This document shows, piece by piece, positions 1,629-53,245 of a DNA stretch of 64,000 nt (the stretch's first letter is position 1; each line of letters starts with the position of its first letter). A program made the translations under genes and the position numbers. The notes below the pieces were generated by a model, which was not told the DNA's origin, did not search any database, and worked only from the letters and a program-made list of their open reading frames with translations. Where the stretch lies: positions 1,798-65,797 of the forward strand of contig JAJYIF010000017.1 in assembly GCA_021790195.1 (NCBI GenBank), written 5' to 3'. Origin of the DNA: Nitrospirota bacterium (GTDB lineage: Bacteria; Nitrospirota; Thermodesulfovibrionia; Thermodesulfovibrionales; UBA9159).

Positions 1629-3085
1629 TTCATCTCCTTAAATAAATTCAAGAGGAGTCTGACGCCTATGCCGGTGGCGCCTTTTGGAGTATAAGGTTTG
1701 TCCTTATCGGTCCAGGCGGTCCCTGCGATATCGAGGTGGACCCACGGGGCATCGCCCGCGAATTCTTTCAGGAAATATCCGGCAGTCACAAACGAACCGT
1801 TCCTGCCCCCGGAATTCTTGATATCCGCAAGATCGCTCTTTATATATTCCATGTATTCTTCATAAAGCGGCATCTGCCACACCCTCTCATAGGTCTCCTC
1901 CCCGGCAGTCTTCAGCCTGTCCATCCAATCGTCATTGTTGCCCATCATGCCGATAGCTTCGTTGCCGAGAGCGACCGAGCAGGCGCCGGTAAGCGTAGCT
2001 ATATCTATTATAACCTCAGGCTTCATCTTTTTGACATACCCGATCGCATCCGCAAGGACAAGCCTTCCTTCGGCATCGGTGTTGATTATCTCTATGGTCT
2101 TTCCGCTCATGGAGGTCACAATGTCTCCGGGTTTTGACGCAGAGCCGCCCGGAAGGTTCTCCGTCGCAGGCAGGACCCCGAGGATATTGACAGGCAGCTT
2201 AGCCTCAGACGCAGCCTTTATCACGGCAAGAACGACCGCCCCGCCGGCCATGTCATACTTCATCTTCTCCATGCCTTCGCTCGGCTTTATCGAGATGCCC
2301 CCGCTGTCAAAGGTTATTGATTTGCCGATTATCGCCACAGGCGCGCCCCTGCCGCCGTTATATCTCAGCACAATGAACTTGGGCGGCTCCTTGCTGCCCC
2401 TTGCAACCGAAAGAAAAGCGCCCATCCCCTCCCTTTCGGCGTCTCCCCTTTCGAGTACCTTTACCGACACCCTTCCTCCCGAAAGTGTCCGCGCTGTCTT
2501 GGCGAGGACAGAAGGAGTCATATCGTTTGAAGGAGTATTGATGAGGTCTTTCGCGAAATTGACGGCGGACGTTGTAGAAACAATCCATCGCATCGAGGCC
2601 GTAAGGGCCTTATCGTTTCTGCATATCAGGGCGACCTTGTTTATACCCTTCTTTCGGTCGACCTCCCTCCTGTAGCGGCCCATTTTATAAAGAGACAGCA
2701 GGCCTCCTTCGATAATGAAAGCGGGAGAATGTCTCAATGCAAGGACATGCCTTCCCGATACCGCAATGTCCTTGCATCCCGCAACGTAAAGCTGGCCAAA
2801 GGCCCTTCCCCCTGCCTGCCTCAGCTTCTCTTTTGTAAGTTCAGACTTCTTTCCGAGTCCGGCGAGCAGAATCCTGCGGGGTCTTATCCTGTTCACGGTA
2901 TGCAGCAAAGTTATCTGATCGGACTTGCCCTCGAACTCGCCAGAGGCGACTACTTTCGAAATCAGTCCGTTCAACAGCGAGTCGATCGCCTTATAAGGCG
3001 CCGCGCCTTCGCCCTCGCAGACAGGTAAAATGAGGGCGTCGGCAGCATAGTCCACATCTCTTATATCCTTTATAGCAACTTTCAT
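1625..3085 (-). CDS. pepA: Leucyl aminopeptidase (peptidase M17)
   Basis: 486 aa with M17 signatures GKSITFDSGGISIKP and NTDAEGRLVLADA. Confidence 0.9.
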   Translation of the reverse strand: MKVAIKDIRDVDYAADALILPVCEGEGAAPYKAIDSLLNGLISKVVASGEFEGKSDQITLLHTVNRIRPRRILLAGLGKKSELTKEKLRQAGGRAFGQLYVAGCKDIAVSGRHVLALRHSPAFIIEGGLLSLYKMGRYRREVDRKKGINKVALICRNDKALTASMRWIVSTTSAVNFAKDLINTPSNDMTPSVLAKTARTLSGGRVSVKVLERGDAEREGMGAFLSVARGSKEPPKFIVLRYNGGRGAPVAIIGKSITFDSGGISIKPSEGMEKMKYDMAGGAVVLAVIKAASEAKLPVNILGVLPATENLPGGSASKPGDIVTSMSGKTIEIINTDAEGRLVLADAIGYVKKMKPEVIIDIATLTGACSVALGNEAIGMMGNNDDWMDRLKTAGEETYERVWQMPLYEEYMEYIKSDLADIKNSGGRNGSFVTAGYFLKEFAGDAPWVHLDIAGTAWTDKDKPYTPKGATGIGVRLLLNLFKEMK

Positions 3086-3167
3086 CAGAACCGCGACAAA
3101 TATTACTCACTCATTGTATCATAAATCAGGATAACAGAGCGCCAAATCTCCCAGGAGGGAACAGGAA

Positions 3168-3401
3168 ATGAGTGATGACTGGGTCCAGGTTTTCCTCACC
3201 TATGACACGATTGAAGCCGAGATGATAAAGGACCTTCTCGAAAGCGGCGACATCGAAACCGTCCTGAGATCGTCAAAGGCAGGTCCCTTTCCGGTCAACA
3301 TCGGGAAGATGGGGGAGATAAAGGTCCTTGTGAGAAAAGAGTATGAGGAGACGGCCCGCAGGCTCATCGCCGGAGAACAGGATAGTCCCTCTTCATCTTG
3401 A
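3168..3401 (+). CDS. Small DUF2007-like (putative signal-transducing) protein
   Basis: 77 aa. The pattern WVQVFLTYDTIEAEMIKDLLESGDIE...VLV resembles the DUF2007 beta-alpha-beta fold family. GGAGG-like RBS (aggaggga) upstream. Its 3' end overlaps the convergent ResB-like gene by 38 nt. Confidence 0.45.
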   Translation: MSDDWVQVFLTYDTIEAEMIKDLLESGDIETVLRSSKAGPFPVNIGKMGEIKVLVRKEYEETARRLIAGEQDSPSSS

Positions 3402-4080
3402 ACGCCACGAGAGCAATAATGCCGATCATAAAGAGGACTCCTCCGATCAGCGCCCAAAGTGTCCCCGGTTCTCTGCTCACCTCGAGCAGGACCTCTTTGG
3501 AAGGATAAGCCCGGACGTCCCTGACATAAATGCCTATCCCCCGCTCGAAAAAAGGCTTATTGGGAAGGAGAACGTCCTTTTTCTCAGCGCCGCCGGCTTT
3601 GAAGTCCACATTGACAGACCAATCAACTATATAGCCCTTTGCATCTTCGGATACGTTGATTGCGGAAATCTCAAACACTCCCCCGTCAGGCAGCGTCAGG
3701 ACACCGCCCTCATCGGCTATGCCGAAGGACTTGAACGCCCCAAGAGAGCTAAGAAGGTGCGCAAGGAGCATAAAGAGAAATCCGATATGCACTATCTGCG
3801 GCGAGATTATCATGATCCATTGGTCCGCCTTCCTCTTCTTTATAAGGGACTCGGCGCTGCAGAAGAGCGTATTGAGCGTGAGTACGGCGAGGATGCCGAT
3901 GCAGCCCCACAGCCACCACGTTACCGACGGAGGCTGCTCACCCAGCCATTCAAAGAGCGGGATTGAATGAAGGAGCTGAAACGCCTCATCGGCCGGCATA
4001 ACAAAGGCCCCGACAAAGAACAGGGCCAGGAGAAGAGCGAGCAGCAATACAGTCGTCTTCAGCGAGAGGAAAAACCGCAT
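3364..4080 (-). CDS. Short ResB/CcsB-like cytochrome c biogenesis membrane protein
   Basis: Tracked ORF is 3364..4155. I prefer the internal ATG at 4080 (MRFFLSLKTTVLLLALLLALFFVG...), which is a ResB-like N-terminal TM start. Additional TM segments, and it lies downstream of ccsA on the same strand. Much shorter (~238 aa) than classical ResB. Confidence 0.45.
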   Translation of the reverse strand: MRFFLSLKTTVLLLALLLALFFVGAFVMPADEAFQLLHSIPLFEWLGEQPPSVTWWLWGCIGILAVLTLNTLFCSAESLIKKRKADQWIMIISPQIVHIGFLFMLLAHLLSSLGAFKSFGIADEGGVLTLPDGGVFEISAINVSEDAKGYIVDWSVNVDFKAGGAEKKDVLLPNKPFFERGIGIYVRDVRAYPSKEVLLEVSREPGTLWALIGGVLFMIGIIALVAFKMKRDYPVLRR

Positions 4081-18076: not shown

Positions 18077-18195
18077 CTGCAACCAGGGAACAACTTGCTG
18101 CGGCACACAAAAGAAATGCTTACCGTTGCTTCCTTCCGGACCTGGCGGGGTTGGCACCCATCTGTTGCGCAGGGCCGTTCCCCGGCTGCAGAAAA
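18077..18195 (-). ncRNA. ffs: Signal recognition particle RNA (4.5S-like core; possible extra 5' hairpin up to ~18246)
   Basis: The minus strand contains the universal domain IV motif CCAGGUCCGGAAGGAAGCAAC (plus strand gttgcttccttccggacctgg at ~18125-18145). The closing helix is cugcagccgggGAAC / GUUcccugguugcag (18191-18177 with 18091-18077). Core length is ~115 nt. It sits immediately upstream of dnaX, the usual position. A further hairpin ccucgaac...guucgagg lies at 18197-18240. Confidence 0.8.
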
Positions 18196-19172: not shown

Positions 19173-19206
19173 CTGATTCCCCCCTCGCTTCGCTCGGCGG
19201 GAATGC
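19173..19206. repeat. Degenerate copy of the GATTCC...GGAATG hairpin repeat family
   Basis: ctgattcccccctcgcttcgctcggcgggaatgc has stem attccc/gggaat and the same ctgGATTCC...GGAATGc frame as the repeats at 45568, 45895 and 53218. Confidence 0.45.
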
Positions 19207-20578: not shown

Positions 20579-20669
20579 TGGCGGAGAGAGTGGGATTTGA
20601 ACCCACGGTGCGGTATTAGCGCACACACGATTTCCAGTCGTGCTCCTTCAGCCGCTCGGACATCTCTCC
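20579..20669 (-). tRNA. tRNA-Ser (anticodon GGA)
   Basis: Minus-strand sequence GGAGAGATGTCCGAGCGGCTGAAGGAGCACGACTGGAAATCGTGTGTGCGCTAATACCGCACCGTGGGTTCAAATCCCACTCTCTCCGCCA. It has a 7-bp acceptor stem, anticodon loop CUGGAAA, a long variable arm, a GGTTCAAATCC T-loop and an encoded CCA. Confidence 0.95.
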
Positions 20670-43762: not shown

Positions 43763-45367
43763 TCAAAAGCTGATGTCGGTCCCTTTGTCCATGCTGTATA
43801 TAGGATAAAGTCTGTAATTCTTGACCCACGGCTGCCTCACAGTATAGTCATTCCTGTGCCAGAAGAAGATCCACGGCGCCTCCTGCACGATAATACTCTC
43901 GGCCCTCCTGTAGTATTGGTCCCTTTCTTTCTCGTTCTGCGCGGCCTGACCGAGCTCTATAAGTCTGTCCACCTCCGGGTTTTTATATCTCGACCTGTTT
44001 CCGGCAGGTCCCATATTCGACGAATGAAATAACGGAAAGAGAAAGTCCTCTGCGTCGGGGTAATCCGCCCACCAGCCAAGCCAGAACATATCGGGCTCTC
44101 CCTTATCGATCGCTTCCTTGTATGCGCTCCATTCCAGCTGATGTATCCTTATGTTCAGTCCGGTCTTCCGGATATAAGACTGAATGAGTTCAGCCATGTC
44201 CACTACTTCCTGGTCCGACGTGACATAGAGATTCACCGTCCTGCCGGTCATGCCCTGTCTCGCCACTATCTCTTTGGCCTTTTCCGGATCATAGTCGTAG
44301 ACTGGGGGCATTTCCCACTTACGAAGAAGATCAGGCACCGGACCGAGCGCCAGTCTTCCCCTGTTTTCAAAGAAAGTCCTGAGCAGTTTCTTCCGGTCTA
44401 TGGCGAAATTCATCGCCCTTCTCAGCTCGACATTGTCAAACGGCGGCCTCGAACAGTTCAGGCCCACATAATAAGTATCGATCGCCTCGACAGAGGTCAT
44501 AAGGTTGCGCCATCTTTTGGACTTCCTGAACCATGAATACTCTGACCCCGGAACGGAAATCACGTCAAGGTTACCCGATTCAAATTCGGTCGTTGCAGTA
44601 AGATCTTCGGGGATGACCCTGTAGATGATGCCGCTGATCCTGGCCTTTTTATCGAAATAGTCCTCCCTTCTTTCAAGCCTTATCTCCCTGTCGGGCAGCC
44701 ATTGCGAAAGAACAAAAGGCCCTGTGCCGACGGGATGGGTCCCGAAATCGGGTCCCAATCTCATGACCTCGTCTCTTGGGACGACGTATGCGGCGGTCAT
44801 TGTGAGGAGATAGAGAAAAGGTCCAAAGGGTTTTTCGAGCCTGATTTCAAGGCTGTGGTCATTGATGACCCTGAGTCCCCTGAGATCATCCGCCTTGCCT
44901 TTCATGAAATCTCTTGCGCCTGCTATCTTCTCCAATACCCATGTATTCGGCGAGTGCGTCTTAGGGTCCAGAATACGCATAAAGGAATACTTGAAGTCTG
45001 CTGCCGTAACTGCTTGATTATCCGAGAACTTGATATTGTTCTTCAGCCAAAAGGTATACGTGAGTCCGTCCTTTGAAATACTCCACCTTTCCGCAATGTC
45101 GGGGATGACATTCAGCTTATCTCCCAGCCTGACAAGACCGTTGAATATCTTGGCTGAAATGGTCCCGCCGGTCACGTCCACCACATGCGCAGGGTCGAGA
45201 GTTGTAGGGTTCGCATTGAGGCGATAATAGACATAACCTTCAAGACGGTTCTTGCGGGAACAGGACAGGGTTAACACGGAGAGAATAGATAAAAGAAAGA
45301 CTGCCAGCTCAAGATAGCAGCTACCCCCTCCCCGCCTATAAAGAAGACTATGCTTTCGCATGGTCAA
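43763..45367 (-). CDS. Family-5 ABC-transporter substrate-binding lipoprotein (peptide/nickel type), with no adjacent permease or ATPase
   Basis: 534 aa. Lipobox LTLSC. SBP_bac_5-like pattern (YRLNANPTTLDPAHV..., WLKNNIKFSD, ...GTGPFVL...). Confidence 0.75.
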   Translation of the reverse strand: MTMRKHSLLYRRGGGSCYLELAVFLLSILSVLTLSCSRKNRLEGYVYYRLNANPTTLDPAHVVDVTGGTISAKIFNGLVRLGDKLNVIPDIAERWSISKDGLTYTFWLKNNIKFSDNQAVTAADFKYSFMRILDPKTHSPNTWVLEKIAGARDFMKGKADDLRGLRVINDHSLEIRLEKPFGPFLYLLTMTAAYVVPRDEVMRLGPDFGTHPVGTGPFVLSQWLPDREIRLERREDYFDKKARISGIIYRVIPEDLTATTEFESGNLDVISVPGSEYSWFRKSKRWRNLMTSVEAIDTYYVGLNCSRPPFDNVELRRAMNFAIDRKKLLRTFFENRGRLALGPVPDLLRKWEMPPVYDYDPEKAKEIVARQGMTGRTVNLYVTSDQEVVDMAELIQSYIRKTGLNIRIHQLEWSAYKEAIDKGEPDMFWLGWWADYPDAEDFLFPLFHSSNMGPAGNRSRYKNPEVDRLIELGQAAQNEKERDQYYRRAESIIVQEAPWIFFWHRNDYTVRQPWVKNYRLYPIYSMDKGTDISF

Positions 45368-45567
45368 TTATACCAGATGTTATCCGGAGCGCTTCCTTAA
45401 GACCCTTCCCCCTTTATCCTCATCTAGACTCAGGAGTCTCCCAACAATTGATCCTCAAACGGCATAATTCTTTAAAGTTAGGAAGGAACTTGATTTTCAC
45501 GAGTGATCTGGTTCTTTTTTCTTAAATGGAAAACTATTTGCGCGGGAAGGAGCTATAATAGGTGCCG

Positions 45568-45594
45568 TCATTCCGGCGGAAGCCGGAATCCAGA
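45568..45594. repeat. Left hairpin repeat of the GIY-YIG unit
   Basis: Stem attccggc (45571-45578) / gccggaat (45583-45590), loop GGAA. Confidence 0.85.
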
Positions 45595-45603
45595 GGGACG
45601 ACA

Positions 45604-45894
45604 GTGAATAAACAACCTGCGGTATATATTCTAGCAAGCAAGAAGAACGGTACTCTTTATACTGGCGTGACTTCAGCCCTTGCCAAAAGGATATGGGAGC
45701 ACAAGAACAATGTAGTAGAAGGATTTACTAAGCGCTATGGGGTCCACCAGTTGGTTTGGTATGAATTACACGAAACCCTGGAATCTGCCATTCGTAGAGA
45801 GAAACAGATTAAGGGACGGAAACGGAAATGGAAACTTGAATTGATTGAGAGTGTAAATGCGAATTGGCAGGATCTATATCATCTGCTTACTTGA
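45604..45894 (+). CDS. GIY-YIG nuclease family protein (small YhbQ/UPF0213-like)
   Basis: The tracked ORF starts at 45562, but its first 14 codons (PSFRRKPESRGTT) are simply the translation of the hairpin repeat. The family-typical start VNKQPAVYILASKKNGTLYTGVTSALAKRIWEHK begins at GTG 45604. The C-terminal REKQIKG.KRKWK motif is present. Confidence 0.8.
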   Translation: MNKQPAVYILASKKNGTLYTGVTSALAKRIWEHKNNVVEGFTKRYGVHQLVWYELHETLESAIRREKQIKGRKRKWKLELIESVNANWQDLYHLLT

Positions 45895-45921
45895 CTGGAT
45901 TCCGGCTTTCGCCGGAATGAC
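45895..45921. repeat. Right hairpin repeat of the GIY-YIG unit (starts the base after the stop codon)
   Basis: Stem attccggc / gccggaat, loop TTTC (GAAA on the other strand). Confidence 0.85.
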
Positions 45922-46128
45922 GAAAAATTAGCGGAAGTCCTGACCATTTTCTCTTGACTCGGCATTATTGGTAGGGTATAAAATATCTGAAGAACAGCAG
46001 GGTAAAGTAACTCAACTGGAGGGGTTCATGTCTGCACACTCTTCGGCTTACCGGCATCAACTATCCTGCAGGAATCGCGCCATTCCCATCAATTTCCCAT
46101 GCATCGGCCCTGAAGAAAAGGAGGAAGT

Positions 46129-47244: not shown

Positions 47245-47487
47245 ATGAACACAAAGATTCAGCAATGGGGTAACAGTCTCGCTCTGAGAATTCCGAAGGC
47301 TTTTGCCGTGGAAGCTAAGCTTCACAAGGGGGCCGTTGTGGATGTCTCGGAGGAAGGCGGCAAAATAGTCCTTACGCCTATCAAGAAAAGGAAGATGACC
47401 TTGAAGAGCCTACTGGACGGTGTGACAAAGGACAACATTCACGGTGAGATAAGCACTGGGAAGAGAGTGGGCAAAGAGATATGGTAA
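47245..47487 (+). CDS. mazE: MazE/AbrB-fold antitoxin
   Basis: 80 aa. The signature KIQQWGNSLALRIPKAF is typical of SpoVT/AbrB-type MazE. AGGAGG RBS. Overlaps mazF by 7 nt. Confidence 0.85.
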   Translation: MNTKIQQWGNSLALRIPKAFAVEAKLHKGAVVDVSEEGGKIVLTPIKKRKMTLKSLLDGVTKDNIHGEISTGKRVGKEIW

Positions 47488-47822
47488 GCAAAGCCTTTGT
47501 TCCTAAACGTGGTGATATCGTATGGATAGACTTTGATCCGCAATCGGGGCATGAACAGGCAGGAAGAAGGCCCGCTCTTGTGATATCGCCAGTTGCGTAT
47601 AACGAGAAGATTGGATTGGCCCTGTTGTGTCCCATAACGAGTCAGGTGAAGGGCTATCCTTTCGAGGTGGCGATTCCGAGAGGGCTGAGTGTATCGGGTG
47701 TCATCCTTGCCGATCAGATCAAAAGCCTTGATTGGAGGAGCAGGGAGGCCGAATTCGGGTGCGACGCCCCTCACGAAACCGTCGATCTTGTCCTGGAGAA
47801 ATTATCGACGCTTTTATCGTAA
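47481..47822 (+). CDS. mazF: MazF endoribonuclease toxin
   Basis: 113 aa. PKRGDIVWIDFDPQSGHEQAGRRPALVIS...LCPITSQVKGYPFEV is the canonical MazF/PemK pattern. Confidence 0.9.
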   Translation: MVSKAFVPKRGDIVWIDFDPQSGHEQAGRRPALVISPVAYNEKIGLALLCPITSQVKGYPFEVAIPRGLSVSGVILADQIKSLDWRSREAEFGCDAPHETVDLVLEKLSTLLS

Positions 47823-47889
47823 TCCCCACAAATTTTGCAGCTTCCTTTAATCCTTCCCCTAACGATTCAACCGACATGCTCAAGAAGAG

Positions 47890-48259
47890 GTGATTTATGT
47901 CATGAATGATGAGGAGCCGGAACAATCCAGGATTCCCGAAGTCGGAGGAATTCAGGTCAATTTCTGCAAAAACGTAAGATGCCCCAACTTCGGCGTGCCT
48001 GCGAGTACACAGGAACAGCCGCGAGGCTCTAAGGTCCATGAAGGAGGGCGCGATACCCATACCGTTTCGGGTGCCGGCGGCCACCGGAGCTACACTACCG
48101 CGATCCGCTGTAATCTTTGCAGAGAAAGCCCACCGCTTAAAAGCAACGGGGAGATTGTCGAAGAGATTAACAGGTTGTCGGGGCTATCTGATAGAAGCTC
48201 CTATAACGTGTCCGAATGAACGCTGTGAGAATCATAGTGTCGATCCCCGCGCCGCTTGA
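47890..48259 (+). pseudogene. Truncated/frameshifted zinc-ribbon ORF of unknown family (possible remnant of a mobile-element gene)
   Basis: 109-aa ORF (47890..48219) with paired Cys motifs FCKNVRCPNFG and RCNLCRES. A second frame (48038..48259) continues with CPNERCENH and runs into direct-repeat copy B. No intact full-length reading frame. Confidence 0.3.
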
Positions 48260-48307
48260 TCAGGTGGCCATGCAGTCAGCCTGGAAGATGAAAAGATAGG
48301 ATGTGGA
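48242..48307 (+). repeat. Direct repeat copy B (orphan 3' gene tail)
   Basis: It still encodes IPAPLDQVAMQSAWKMKR-stop, against IPAPFDQVAMQSAWKMKK-stop in copy A. 3 of the 5 coding-part substitutions are silent. Confidence 0.85.
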
Positions 48308-48387
48308 AACTATTGAGGATTTACGGAAGAAACTGACTGATATAACGCGGCGCTGACTTGCCGCTTTTTGGCGAGTCGATGTTGAAA

Positions 48388-48711
48388 TCAGTAGATATCG
48401 AGCTGGATCTTGATCGTCTCGCTGATTTTGAGCAAATCTTCTTCCGAAAGAACGCCGGTACGCTTGAATAGGCGCATCTTGCTCACCGTGGCCAATTGAT
48501 CAGCCATGGCCTTGCTTTCTTTGCCGTTGAGAAGAACGAGCGCTTCGCTCGGATAGAGACGATCTGTTTTGCTTGTAAGGGGGACGACTTGAACTCTGTT
48601 GAGAAATTTGTTTGAGGCGTCATTGCTGACGATGACGGCGGGACGTTTCTTTTTGATTTCGCCGCCGTCGGAAGGATCAAAATTTACCCACCAAACCTCA
48701 CCTCTTTTCAC
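48388..48711 (-). CDS. PemK/MazF-family toxin (second copy, divergent from 47481..47822)
   Basis: 107 aa. [31 protein letters not shown]...VVPLTS pattern. Confidence 0.85.
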
Positions 48712-48928
48712 GTGCTATATCCTTGAAGGTGGCCTCTGCCCATTCAAGAGCGTCTGATTCCCGCTTCTTGTCTTTGGACATCTGGGAGTAGGCCAATTCC
48801 AGGTTGGTACGCACTACATGTGGCCGCACAAGTTCCTCAATAAATTTGCTGATCTTACGCGGACCGATAGTTTTATGAAGACCTTTGTACACCGCTTCGT
48901 CAACTGTTATGGTCAGTTTTTTCTGCAT
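48698..48928 (-). CDS. Cognate antitoxin of the PemK-like toxin
   Basis: 76 aa. 14-nt overlap with the toxin gene. N-terminal [17 protein letters not shown] suggests a ribbon-helix-helix-like DNA-binding start. Upstream there are two TATACGT direct repeats 11 nt apart (48944-48950, 48955-48961), a possible operator. Confidence 0.6.
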
Positions 48929-51092: not shown

Positions 51093-51157
51093 GATAGCCC
51101 TTCTTCTGCACCCAACCAGTCAATAGATACCCACGGGCAAGCCCCATAGGTGTTAAC

Positions 51158-52459
51158 TTAAGCGGCATCAAGCATATTTTTTTCTTTCTTTTGGCGGAGC
51201 GGACCGTATTTGATTATTTCGAGGGTAGTTCGTCGGGATCTCTGGCGAGATTTCAGGCAGTTTTTTATCAATCGGGGAAGTTCTTCACGAAGATAATCTA
51301 TGGCCTTTTGTAGTGACACCAGAAGAAGTTCAAGAAGAATAAAGGCACGCTCCTGAATTCGCTTGTAGAGCTTTTCCATGCTGAGTTCTCTCCGCTTGCT
51401 GTTCCAGAGCCTGATGTTTATATCTGCGTGAAGCCGATGAATAAGAACAGCCATAATCAATTTGCCATAAATTTCACAGAGCAACCGATTGTGTTTGCCT
51501 GTATTGGATTTATGTATACACAAGACTGACTTTATCTGCTTAAACAACAGTTCGATTTGCCATCTGAGACTGTAAAACGGTCTAACCATTTCTGAAGGCA
51601 GCCATTGTTGAGGTACATTGGTGATCATTAACGTCCAGTCTGCCAAGAGTAAATGATATTGGCTCGGGGTCCTTCCTCGTTCCCGTGAGGATTTCTTGAG
51701 CTTTCGTCGTCTTGCATTTGCCACATCCCGACTTACTCTGAGGCAGATAAGCCTACAACAAACCTGGGTTTCCTTATCCCCACCCACAATGATCTGCATT
51801 TCATGAATGTTCCCCTTGATTTTCTTCAATGCGCCCAGCAAATCAATAGAGCTGAACGACTTAGGGTCAAGCAGTCTTATCCCAATAGATAACCGGGAAA
51901 GAAAATATGCCCCTATCACCCCTATCTCACGAAATATTTTAATGTTGAAATATCCCAGGTCAACCAGCACCAAATCTCCACGCTGTACATGACTTGGGAC
52001 CTGGTACGCATAGGCTCCGTCAGGCGTGATACCCGAAGTTATTTCAAAAAAACTGAGTTCTCCCTGTTTATATTCATAGCAGGCTTGCAGTTTGCAACTT
52101 GCCTCAGATGCACTGCCGCCGCACCCCGGCAAAACAGTCTTAAGCTTGGGGTCAATATTCCAGCTTGAGCTATCGAAAATCAGAATACGTTTAAAATGTC
52201 CGAGTAAATCAACCCGGATCGAAGTGAATGTCGATATTTTCTGGCTCAGGACGGATTCTGAACACCGCTTCATGAATGCAACAGCACCGGATGAAAACCT
52301 TCGATGCATGCCTTCTCTACTCATTTTTACCTTTATGGCTTCGACCATACCGGCCAATGAAGGATGTTTCATCCCTAATTGGCCAACAGTCATAAGAGCA
52401 AGAAAGTCAAAGGCACCCAAGACCTTCTTGCGGTGAATAAACCCACTTTGTCGTGCCAA
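51158..52459 (-). CDS. IS4-family DDE transposase
   Basis: 433 aa from a TTG start. Candidate catalytic residues in ILIFDSS, LVLVDLGYF and the Y-2-R-3-E-6-K block YSLRWQIELLFKQIK. Confidence 0.85.
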   Translation of the reverse strand: MARQSGFIHRKKVLGAFDFLALMTVGQLGMKHPSLAGMVEAIKVKMSREGMHRRFSSGAVAFMKRCSESVLSQKISTFTSIRVDLLGHFKRILIFDSSSWNIDPKLKTVLPGCGGSASEASCKLQACYEYKQGELSFFEITSGITPDGAYAYQVPSHVQRGDLVLVDLGYFNIKIFREIGVIGAYFLSRLSIGIRLLDPKSFSSIDLLGALKKIKGNIHEMQIIVGGDKETQVCCRLICLRVSRDVANARRRKLKKSSRERGRTPSQYHLLLADWTLMITNVPQQWLPSEMVRPFYSLRWQIELLFKQIKSVLCIHKSNTGKHNRLLCEIYGKLIMAVLIHRLHADINIRLWNSKRRELSMEKLYKRIQERAFILLELLLVSLQKAIDYLREELPRLIKNCLKSRQRSRRTTLEIIKYGPLRQKKEKNMLDAA

Positions 52460-52498
52460 CTCATCAAGTGTTTTTTTTAAAGAATGACATCAGTTCAT

Positions 52499-52831
52499 CT
52501 ACCATGATCTGCTCCCAAAGCCTTTTTCTCGGACTAGCTCGACATTGACCTGAATCAATTCCGTGATTAGCTTCTTAAGTTCCTGATAGTTATTGACTCT
52601 CTTTCGTGCTTCTGATACGTCTTCTTTCCGGACGAACATCGATGAGCTTCGACCGCCGACACTAAAGCTAAGCTGATAATAGGGGCCGTGCTTTTGGGGG
52701 TTTACGGGGTCTTTGCACTTACAGCCAGGCGTTCCGCACACGTTCCACTGCTCACTGATACTCCCTGGTAGAACCGGTCCAAGGTTCAATATCTTTTGCT
52801 TTACCTTGCCAACACTGTTCTTTTTTGGCAT
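52499..52831 (-). CDS. Small IS-encoded DUF6788-like protein (zinc-knuckle CGxPxCxC)
   Basis: Preferred start is ATG 52831 (MPKKNSV...), preceded by AAGGAGG. Motifs GSISEQWNVCGTPGCKCKD...HGPYYQLSF...NYQELKKLITELIQVN. Confidence 0.6.
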   Translation of the reverse strand: MPKKNSVGKVKQKILNLGPVLPGSISEQWNVCGTPGCKCKDPVNPQKHGPYYQLSFSVGGRSSSMFVRKEDVSEARKRVNNYQELKKLITELIQVNVELVREKGFGSRSW

Positions 52832-53217
52832 GTCGTATCCTCCTTGTACCGATAGCATACATAATGCTATCGGGTACATACAAGAAAAAAAGTGGTCCGC
52901 AAACCACTTTTCTCAATTTCTTAAGTTAACACCTATGGGGCATGCCCGTGGAACTCTGATAGGGTGTTAGATACTTAACTCGCTAACTACGGCATTTTTC
53001 ATTTTCCACAATCCACATAGATGTCATGTCGGGTGGGGTTACTTGATTTATCGAATTATCACGGCAGGCTAATATTACTCTTGTGATGTTATCGAGTTTT
53101 CCGTCTAACATGAGTCCCCTCCCAAAGAATTACCTCTTTTATACTCCGATTATCGGCCAGCTGTCAAGAGGAAACGCGTTGATTTCCGGGCTTAAGGCTT
53201 GGTCGCTGACAAAGTCG

Positions 53218-53245
53218 CTGGATTCCGGGTCAGGCCAGGAATGAC
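53218..53245. repeat. Degenerate solo copy of the GIY-YIG-associated hairpin repeat
   Basis: ctggattccgggtcaggccaggaatgac has the same ctgGATTCC...GGAATGAC frame as 45895-45921. A still weaker copy (gatttccgggcttaaggc) lies just upstream at ~53181-53198. Confidence 0.6.

Follow-up and report, generated by a model that had tools for sequence, protein, structure and literature searches.

The Neisseria Transformation Sequence (NTS), CGTCATTCCCGCGMAVGCGGGAATCYRG, was defined by Chenal et al. 2025 (Nat Commun 16:2388; PMC11893778), who reported that its core is the old dRS3 repeat and that Ssn-related motifs (SRM) cluster, across phyla, around a single gene, ssnA. SsnA is a 94-aa single-domain GIY-YIG protein, cd10448 (GIY-YIG_unchar_3) (PMC11893778). 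Here we describe a locus with the same components in a 64-kb stretch of Nitrospirota DNA (contig JAJYIF010000017.1), designated the window; homologous and comparison loci elsewhere are referred to by L-numbers and proteins by P-numbers. The unit of interest, at window positions 45566-45922, is a compact 357 bp in which a hairpin arm, a spacer, a GIY-YIG open reading frame (ORF) and an inverted hairpin arm follow one another. This is very probably an Ssn-SRM module, namely a 96-aa GIY-YIG Ssn nuclease accompanied by two inverted copies of the hairpin that it recognises.

Four SsnA homologs bind the hairpin solely as single-stranded DNA (ssDNA) and then cut a few nt 5' of the motif, with binding restricted to the strand that reads CGTC-stem-loop-stem-CCAG; the complementary strand is not cut, double-stranded DNA (dsDNA) and RNA are not cut, and RNA is not bound (PMC11893778). 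Cutting is lost in the Y6A, Y17A and E64A variants; binding depends critically on the C that follows the palindrome, and cleavage on the three nt that precede it (PMC11893778). In N. meningitidis, transformation by hairpin-bearing DNA is reduced and recombination is modulated, and the family is being developed into ssDNA tools (PMC11893778). The authors also describe an NTS-ssnA-NTS layout that is insertion sequence (IS)-like, compare it with IS200/IS605 and with the repetitive extragenic palindrome (REP), bacterial interspersed mosaic element (BIME) and RAYT systems, and raise the idea of mobility (PMC11893778). The initial annotation of the window had been aware of no characterised GIY-YIG nuclease between inverted hairpins, a view that this 2025 publication overtakes, as it already covers the enzyme family, its partner hairpin, the layout of the flanks and the analogy with REP and IS elements; the locus is a further example. 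Only the evidence for carrier elements goes beyond the published work, and it comes from relatives, not from the window.

The nuclease gene and its two hairpins

The two arms, each of 28 nt, are located at 45566-45593 (+) and 45895-45922 (-), separated by 301 nt in a repeat search, and are complementary at 27 of 28 positions (96%) with the lone mismatch in a loop base (GGAA vs GAAA). The left arm, CGTCATTCCGGCGGAAGCCGGAATCCAG, is an SRM/NTS-type hairpin, CGTCATTCCGGC-GGAA-GCCGGAATCCAG, with a stem formed by 45570-45577 and 45582-45589 and a loop at 45578-45581. The right arm, also of SRM/NTS type, reads CGTCATTCCGGC-GAAA-GCCGGAATCCAG on the minus strand and its first base directly follows the stop codon. 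As ssDNA, the two arms are each predicted to fold into an 8-bp stem topped by a 4-nt loop, with an energy of ~-9 kcal/mol and z scores between -3.4 and -4.9. Between the left hairpin and the gene is a 10-nt spacer, AGGGACGACA (45594-45603, +), with a Shine-Dalgarno-like AGGGA, and hairpin-to-start spacings of 9-13 nt are found in relatives too. The ssn gene (45604-45894, +) has 96 codons, from a GTG start at 45604 to a TGA stop at 45892-45894, and encodes a single-domain GIY-YIG nuclease; tblastn finds no second GIY-YIG gene in the window. The inverted copies around the gene, their 8-bp stems and 4-nt loops, and the position of the right copy on the base after the stop had all been recognised in the initial annotation and stand. 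Its left arm is real, with the coordinates shifted by 1-2 bases, and ends 10 rather than 9 nt before the GTG. Counting the motif GTCATTCCGGC-N4-GCCGGAATCCAG, a check suggested there for the full genome and its relatives, returned exactly two occurrences in the 64 kb, with 0.00 expected from 100 shuffles.

When compared with the NTS consensus, the right arm matches at 26 and the left arm at 25 of 28 positions. The two differences in the right arm, at positions 10 and 19, are mutually paired, and so exchange one C-G pair for G-C. In both arms the palindrome is preceded by GTC and followed by C. The published SRM pattern, HGTCWYN(0-2)YYVSBRHN(0-5)WNVSBRGN(0-2)RNCYNB, is fitted exactly by the right arm, and by the left arm at all but one loop base, which is G instead of H; loop identity is reported to be non-essential (PMC11893778). 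The gene is flanked by SRM hairpins, as is characteristic of the Ssn family. The flipped stem pair, ATTCCGGC instead of ATTCCCGC, may represent a shifted specificity, and this Nitrospirota-like member is thus a candidate for a new enzyme/hairpin specificity pair for ssDNA tools. Among the neisserial dRS3 repeats and NIMEs, dRS3 (ATTCCC-N8-GGGAAT) is the palindromic NTS core, and the window hairpin has the same core with the one pair flipped; dRS3, unlike the window hairpin, is defined only in Neisseria and without oriented flanks.

The window protein matches Pfam PF01541 (GIY-YIG) with an E value of 2.8e-15 over residues 6-78 of 96, and there are no other Pfam, NCBIfam or PADLOC matches above threshold, defence systems included. 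It is, as expected of an Ssn, a single-domain GIY-YIG protein within the range of ~94-100 aa and without an extra DNA-binding domain. Homology was evaluated with the N. gonorrhoeae ortholog rather than with the N. meningitidis SsnA sequence itself. A tblastn search of N. gonorrhoeae NZ_CP119140.1 gave one match in the record, with an E value of 8e-31 (the published criterion is E < 1e-10), to a 94-aa ORF that has Y6, Y17 and E64 and sits in a cluster of canonical NTS copies. In the pairwise alignment the two proteins are 63% identical over 89 aa (E 2e-42), and Y8, Y19 and E66 of the window protein align to Y6, Y17 and E64 and are invariant in 29 close relatives. The N. gonorrhoeae record (L166) is a 2.17-Mb chromosome that PLSDB lists among plasmids, and the same holds for NZ_CP119142.1. 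A search of PDB sequences returned only remote UPF0213 and UvrC matches and no Ssn structure. Proteins of the UPF0213/YhbQ type (PDB 1ZG2, 1YWL) are likewise single-domain GIY-YIG proteins of ~100 aa, with remote likeness (E 1e-4 and 0.13), and they belong to a different subfamily with no known hairpin partner. AlphaFold2 models of the 29 close relatives had a mean predicted local distance difference test score (pLDDT) of 50, too low for use.

Homologs begin M/V-NKQPAVY (alignment A1), which fits the GTG start at 45604. Public gene callers start instead at an upstream GTG, 45562, and so predict a 110-aa product that begins MPSFRRKPESR and whose first 14 residues, MPSFRRKPESRGTT, are translated hairpin; the read-through in this call spans 45562-45603 (+). 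A 46-aa minus-strand ORF (45497-45637) also reads through the hairpin and contains WIPASAGMT. Extension of ORF calls through the hairpin is an annotation trap, and the hairpin-derived peptides of such spurious ORFs are likely annotation artefacts wherever SRMs occur.

The locus resembles the published system (PMC11893778) in its ~95-aa single-domain GIY-YIG protein with Tyr/Tyr/Glu kept and 63% identity to the N. gonorrhoeae ortholog, and in its 28-nt hairpin frame with CGTC/CCAG flanks, 8-bp stem, 4-nt loop and hairpins on both sides of the gene. It differs from Neisseria in the flipped stem pair and in the placement of the hairpins, which in the window point towards the gene and lie against it (10 nt from the start codon and 0 nt from the stop), whereas in Neisseria the closest copies point outward, with ~105 nt between the upstream one and the gene. 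The host also differs, being Nitrospirota-like and from mine drainage. The proposal in the initial annotation that gene and hairpins are a functional pair, and not a coincidence, is upheld, and its analogy with REP/RAYT was reasonable.

By analogy with its homologs, the window enzyme would act on its two hairpins only as ssDNA, strand-specifically, with a cut just 5' of each. The left hairpin would then be cleavable on the + strand and the right hairpin on the - strand, with predicted cuts a few nt to the left of the left hairpin (+) and just to the right of 45922 (-). With one hairpin on each strand and the CGTC ends pointing outward, whichever strand is exposed would have one cleavable site, and both sites would be outside the 357-bp unit. 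A strand could become exposed as the lagging-strand template, in the course of repair, or when DNA enters by conjugation or transformation. Immediately upstream, the left outer arm (45464-45559, +) contains a conserved -10 box, GCTATAAT, with TATAAT at 45554-45559; located ~7 nt upstream of the left hairpin, it is likely the ssn promoter, and ssn would be transcribed from it. A likely effect would be that hairpin-bearing ssDNA is cut and recombination thereby modulated, as in N. meningitidis.

Related loci in other phyla

A scan of one genome per species identified 80 loci at 60-80% protein identity, 77 of them with enough flank for evaluation. They originate from Thermodesulfobacteriota and 'delta' metagenome-assembled genomes (MAGs), Beta- and Gammaproteobacteria, Dehalococcoidia, Anaerolineales, Planctomycetota, Bipolaricaulota, Acidobacteriota and one actinobacterial MAG. 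An SRM is present within 150 bp of the gene at 62 of the 77 loci (81%), with SRMs on both sides at 35, in the inward orientation seen in the window at 26, and with the downstream hairpin beginning on the base after the stop at 14. SRM density is 5.2/kb beside the gene and 0.075/kb at distances >500 bp. These figures agree with the 71% and 42% reported previously (PMC11893778). Ten of the 15 loci that lack a match to the pattern bear variant hairpins of the form ATTCCnnn-loop-nnnGGAAT. The expectation in the initial annotation that the hairpin family would be dispersed well beyond this locus, and that homologous genes would be bracketed alike, is thus borne out in many phyla.

Neighbouring hairpins that face inward fall into two classes, gene-less doublets 7-139 nt apart and gene-containing pairs. 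The latter have a sharp spacing mode of 301-306 nt (11 pairs), in which 301 occurs five times, window included. In hairpins chosen by their flanks alone the stem positions covary: pair 6-15, for example, is GC in 50, CG in 49, TA in 17 and AT in 8, and overall 911 cells are Watson-Crick versus 580 +/- 15 in shuffles. The loop consensus is G-N-A-N. At L094 and L101, in related betaproteobacterial MAGs (~2870-2900, 3310-3360), the orthologous hairpins are distinguished by a compensatory double change, ATACCGGC...GCCGGTAT versus ATTCCGGC...GCCGGAAT, and at L101 there is a 33-nt insertion in the loop of another hairpin.

In distant copies, DNA homology starts at YGTCATTCC and stops at GGAATGACG (alignment A2), and DNA identity confined to the unit extends across phyla, reaching 81% between L089 and L104, a Bipolaricaulota MAG/deltaproteobacterial MAG pair. 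In several genera, ssn is stably syntenic within the genus. Protein P0055 (L171-L178), identical on 23 contigs, is always encoded between genes for a HAMP/HisKA histidine kinase and a sigma-54 response regulator; as all 23 contigs share this one context they give no multi-site evidence, and the cassette seems to have become fixed within a two-component operon. Two ssn paralogs (L116/L117) are located ~124 kb apart on one Thermodesulfobacteriota chromosome (OZ245366.1), each within BIME-like arrays in which ATTCCTGC-GAAA-GCAGGAAT alternates with ATTCCGTG-TCAGG-CACGGAAT.

Several observations weigh against the assignment of the locus as an Ssn-SRM module, or limit it. The NTS nearest to N. gonorrhoeae ssnA (L166) point away from the gene, on the upstream side at ~105 nt and on the - strand, on the downstream side 2 nt beyond the stop and on the + strand; as these face the opposite way to the window hairpins, orientation is not fixed in the family. 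Within the K-E-W-K-R-K-W motif the window protein has R where most relatives have W, a residue that two relatives also lack (A1). The protein is placed in the family through SsnA homology, catalytic residues and hairpins, and ssDNA-specific hairpin cutting by the window protein itself is a prediction from its homologs. Besides the flanking pair, the 64 kb contain a single SRM, a solo hairpin of a different subtype, and a high genomic copy number is therefore unsupported. The window derives from ENA assembly ERZ27233560 (contig k141_1391941), a mine-drainage metagenome, and the only public runs with exactly this gene are the two source samples, which leaves this copy with one known context. In these two DNA runs the unit is covered as deeply as the sequence on either side of it, whereas the hairpin bins are 6-13 times deeper and contigs are interrupted at hairpins; the hairpin is therefore repeated in the community, in copies that may sit in other organisms. 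The locus is absent from the metatranscriptomes of the same study, and transcription of ssn is predicted from sequence.

Carrier elements and routes of spread

The clearest insertion signatures are found in relatives, where they are always outside the hairpins; none comes from the window copy. In the first carrier family, that of the closest relatives, protein P0004 (83% identical) is encoded on two contigs, L167 and L168 (ERZ27227667 / ERZ27227668), that have 519 bp in common (L167 79-596 and L168 17-533) at 99.0% identity, including the promoter and the hairpin-ssn-hairpin unit. The right flanks are clearly unrelated and the left flank of L168 is only 16 nt. The element ends, CAGGAGTTCCCCCAAG... 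and ...ATGGGGGAACTTCTG, match at 13 of 14 positions as terminal inverted repeats, and each copy has its own direct repeats of 8-10 bp, TTATGGAG(CA) at L167 69-78 and 597-606 and CAGACATAAA at L168 5-14 and 534-543. The pair looks like a recent transposition. A tandem or circle junction is possible at L168, as the short left flank repeats 14 nt of the right junction. An extra internal copy of the right end is present at L167 172-188, so that the left arm alone is a 116-bp pair of inverted ends.

Traces of the same carrier are apparent around the window copy. The left outer arm (45464-45559) is homologous to the left arm of the 519-bp element, with a local score against L167 110-211 of 30 versus 15.9 +/- 2.2 for shuffled sequences, 0 of 1000 of which reach it (also A6, A7). 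At the expected distance from this arm there is a weak candidate for a decayed left terminal repeat, CAGGAGTCTCCCAACAAT (45431-45448, +), which matches CAGGAGTTCCCCCAAGAAT of L167 in 15 of 19 columns. The 20 nt outside the right hairpin, AAAAATTAGCGGAAGTCCTG (45923-45942, +), are kept in the four closest relatives (A6) and correspond to the right terminal repeat, AAAAAATGGGGGAACTTCTG, in L167 and L168; their pairwise score alone is marginal. No target duplication is visible around the window copy and its carrier ends are decayed, which counts against a carrier here, and given this lack of a duplication the copy reads as, and looks like, an old, decayed member of a carrier that would have been ~510 bp long.

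The second family consists of 416-515-bp elements at L082, L084, L085, L088, L089, L090, L092 and L104 (~2900-3420 in each), one in a Bipolaricaulota MAG and the rest in 'delta' MAGs. At these 8 of the closest genome loci, the cassettes are enclosed by CATAAGCGCTAACTTAAG terminal repeats, where the ends of the first family have CAGGAGTTCCCCC. Four have exact or near-exact, G-rich flanking duplications of 10-12 bp: L085 GGGTTGGAAGGG / GGGTTGGGAGGG, L088 CCCCCCAGCCC, L089 GGGCTGGAGC and L092 GGATTGAGGGG. L085 and L088 are two copies in one MAG, with the duplicated motif reversed in L088. The CATAAGCGCTAACTTAAG ends match, at 12 of 15 positions, the ends (ATAGGTGTTAACTTAAG, inner 15 nt) of a DDE_Tnp_1 insertion sequence that is present in the window. 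Near-identical copies at different sites with target-site duplications, the mark of a transposable element, are therefore documented in relatives, not in the window.

Terminal inverted repeats and duplications of 8-12 bp are products of IS4/IS5-type DDE transposases, and the features of these elements fit a transposase acting in trans rather than a REPtron-like mechanism. A plausible but still tentative account of how the cassette spreads is consequently that it is the cargo of a 0.4-0.5 kb element, similar to a miniature inverted-repeat transposable element (MITE), that is moved in trans by a DDE-type transposase, with the hairpins irrelevant to movement. The ssn relatives resemble MITEs and other elements moved by IS4/IS5-type enzymes in having terminal inverted repeats of 13-18 bp, direct duplications of 8-12 bp and one set of ends that is DDE_Tnp_1-like. 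They are unlike MITEs in carrying a functional-looking gene with its own promoter, and the window copy has no recognisable duplications. The 99.0% identical copies at L167 and L168, the second-family ends and duplications, and the first-family left arm and right 20 nt in the window all argue for this account. Against it, no transposase was found whose ends match those of the first carrier family, the ends in the window are decayed, L168 might be a tandem or circle junction and many family members are bounded by hairpins alone. The account concerns spread only, and is compatible with the identification of the locus as an Ssn-SRM module. The cassette acts as a semi-selfish unit, in this lineage apparently in the main as the cargo of a ~0.5-kb element with terminal inverted repeats and target-site duplications, moved most likely by a transposase supplied in trans. 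Such carriers provide a concrete route of spread, a matter merely speculated on in the published work, and suggest that the nuclease is cargo and not a transposase.

The initial annotation had instead likened the unit to REPtrons, with the nuclease as resident enzyme. In an autonomous element of this kind Ssn would excise and re-insert the 357-bp unit, with the hairpins as the element ends and solo hairpins seeded in the process. REPtrons do resemble the window unit, in that inverted copies of a hairpin that is recognised as ssDNA lie on both sides of a small nuclease gene, the hairpins are dispersed and inverted doublets are common. The likeness is in architecture only: REPtrons have a Y1/HUH tyrosine enzyme with a covalent intermediate, and the window enzyme is a hydrolytic GIY-YIG protein with no strand joining. 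GIY-YIG enzymes hydrolyse DNA with no covalent intermediate and no rejoining, unlike a Y1/HUH RAYT, and self-transposition of this type is therefore unlikely. Its appeal comes from predicted cuts just outside both hairpins, from the arrest of homology at the hairpins in distant copies, from the 81% unit-confined identity between Bipolaricaulota and deltaproteobacterial MAGs, and from the abundance of gene-less inverted doublets with spacers of 7-139 nt; the same idea was raised by the authors of PMC11893778. The mobility signatures in relatives are, in contrast, all outside the hairpins, and in several genera the gene is stably syntenic. Mobilisation of hairpins or gene driven by Ssn has no demonstration in the literature and no signature in the present data. 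IS200/IS605 elements share with the unit subterminal hairpins that are recognised in ssDNA and a lack of long terminal inverted repeats at the hairpin boundaries. Their two hairpins are on the same strand, and a Y1 transposase, TnpA, excises a single-strand circle; the window unit has one hairpin per strand and no Y1 enzyme, and as each strand has one cleavable site only, excision of the IS200/IS605 type is impossible.

Comparison of orthologous loci, also suggested in the initial annotation, gave a divided result. The best named relatives of the neighbouring SBP_bac_5 protein are in Thermodesulfovibrionales and Nitrospirota, and in four related genomes (L162-L165) the gene has a baeRF_family10 gene upstream and no ssn. 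DUF6159 orthologs (L002-L004) have no ssn upstream. With orthologs of both neighbours found without it, the unit is not an old syntenic neighbour of either gene, as nuclease-driven insertion would also predict. The baeRF site in relatives is at times also occupied by a cupin or UvrD gene; the window has the ssn unit, DUF6159 and the toxin-antitoxin genes in its place, and there is no baeRF gene anywhere in the 64 kb of the window. The neighbour gene thus differs too: as the whole right side differs, the comparison of window 45367-45565 with L162-L165 reveals a synteny break rather than a clean empty site, and none could be defined through DUF6159 relatives or SBP_bac_5 orthologs. The two source runs provide no population polymorphism, as they contain no joints that skip this unit, and the only joints found are at other loci with two hairpins 15-22 nt apart. 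In contigs from the source samples (runs X2, X3, compared with window 45593-45901), such inward hairpin doublets have 15-22 nt of unrelated sequence between them. Gene-less doublets could be deletion derivatives or landing sites.

A variant in which the 0.36-0.52 kb elements are autonomous, with Ssn as their sole protein, nicks beside the hairpins starting copying by host replication or repair, and the terminal repeats and duplications arising as part of that process, is quite unlikely.

It is very unlikely that the hairpins function in RNA or transcription, as 5' and 3' stem-loops that stabilise, terminate or autoregulate the nuclease mRNA with their symmetry a by-product. Judged from the -10 box, transcripts would indeed probably begin with the first base of the left hairpin; the right hairpin directly adjoins the stop codon, and a further copy of the hairpin is present in metatranscriptome contigs. 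There is, however, no Rfam match and no predicted terminator at the locus, and neither hairpin is followed by a run of T; the same hairpins occur in abundance elsewhere than at ssn genes, in both orientations. A G-N-A-N loop with a closing C-G pair makes a classic, stable mini-hairpin in DNA. In addition, the homologous enzymes do not bind RNA (PMC11893778). A free-standing GIY-YIG homing endonuclease, which would cut empty alleles as dsDNA and be copied in by repair, has in its favour the GIY-YIG catalytic domain and a weak NCBIfam likeness to group I intron endonucleases (E 7.6e-4), and is exceedingly improbable given a TIGR01453 score of 19.6 bits against a cut-off of 56, a 96-aa single domain with no DNA-binding domain, no intron or intein context, and homologs without dsDNA activity (PMC11893778).

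Neighbouring features of the window

The unit sits between two divergent promoters. That of the SBP_bac_5 gene (~45366-45385) has an extended -10 and is conserved in L162, L164 and L165, and that of the DUF6159 gene (~45953-45981) reads TTGACT-17-TATAAA. Just downstream of the DUF6159 gene, at 47245-48928, there are two MazE/PemK (MazF-like) toxin-antitoxin pairs in opposite orientation. The DDE_Tnp_1 insertion sequence occupies ~51131-52951, with its transposase ORF at 51158-52459 (-) and terminal inverted repeats of ~32 bp, CCACGGGCA[A/T]GCCCCATAGGTGTTAACTTAAG. With these toxin-antitoxin pairs and the insertion sequence, the region from 45.4 to 53.3 kb looks like a variable island.

The solo SRM is located at 53221-53245 (-) and reads GTCATTCCTGG-CCTGA-CCCGGAATCCAG, with a stem, ATTCCTGG/CCCGGAAT, that has one mismatch, a 5-nt loop, CCTGA, and the GTC and CCAG flanks kept; its fold is weak (z -1.1). 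Hairpins of this subtype, ATTCCGGG-CCTGA-CCCGGAAT, are also found beside the Ssn gene of L095. Two solo copies had been listed in the initial annotation, and this one is a real relative, of another subtype. The other, at 19173-19206, was rejected, as it has only ATTCCC...GGGAAT, without GTC/CCAG flanks and with no fold signal (z -0.4). Rfam also identifies a bacterial small signal recognition particle (SRP) RNA at 18084-18181 (-) and a tRNA gene at 20582-20669 (-), both unrelated to the ssn unit.

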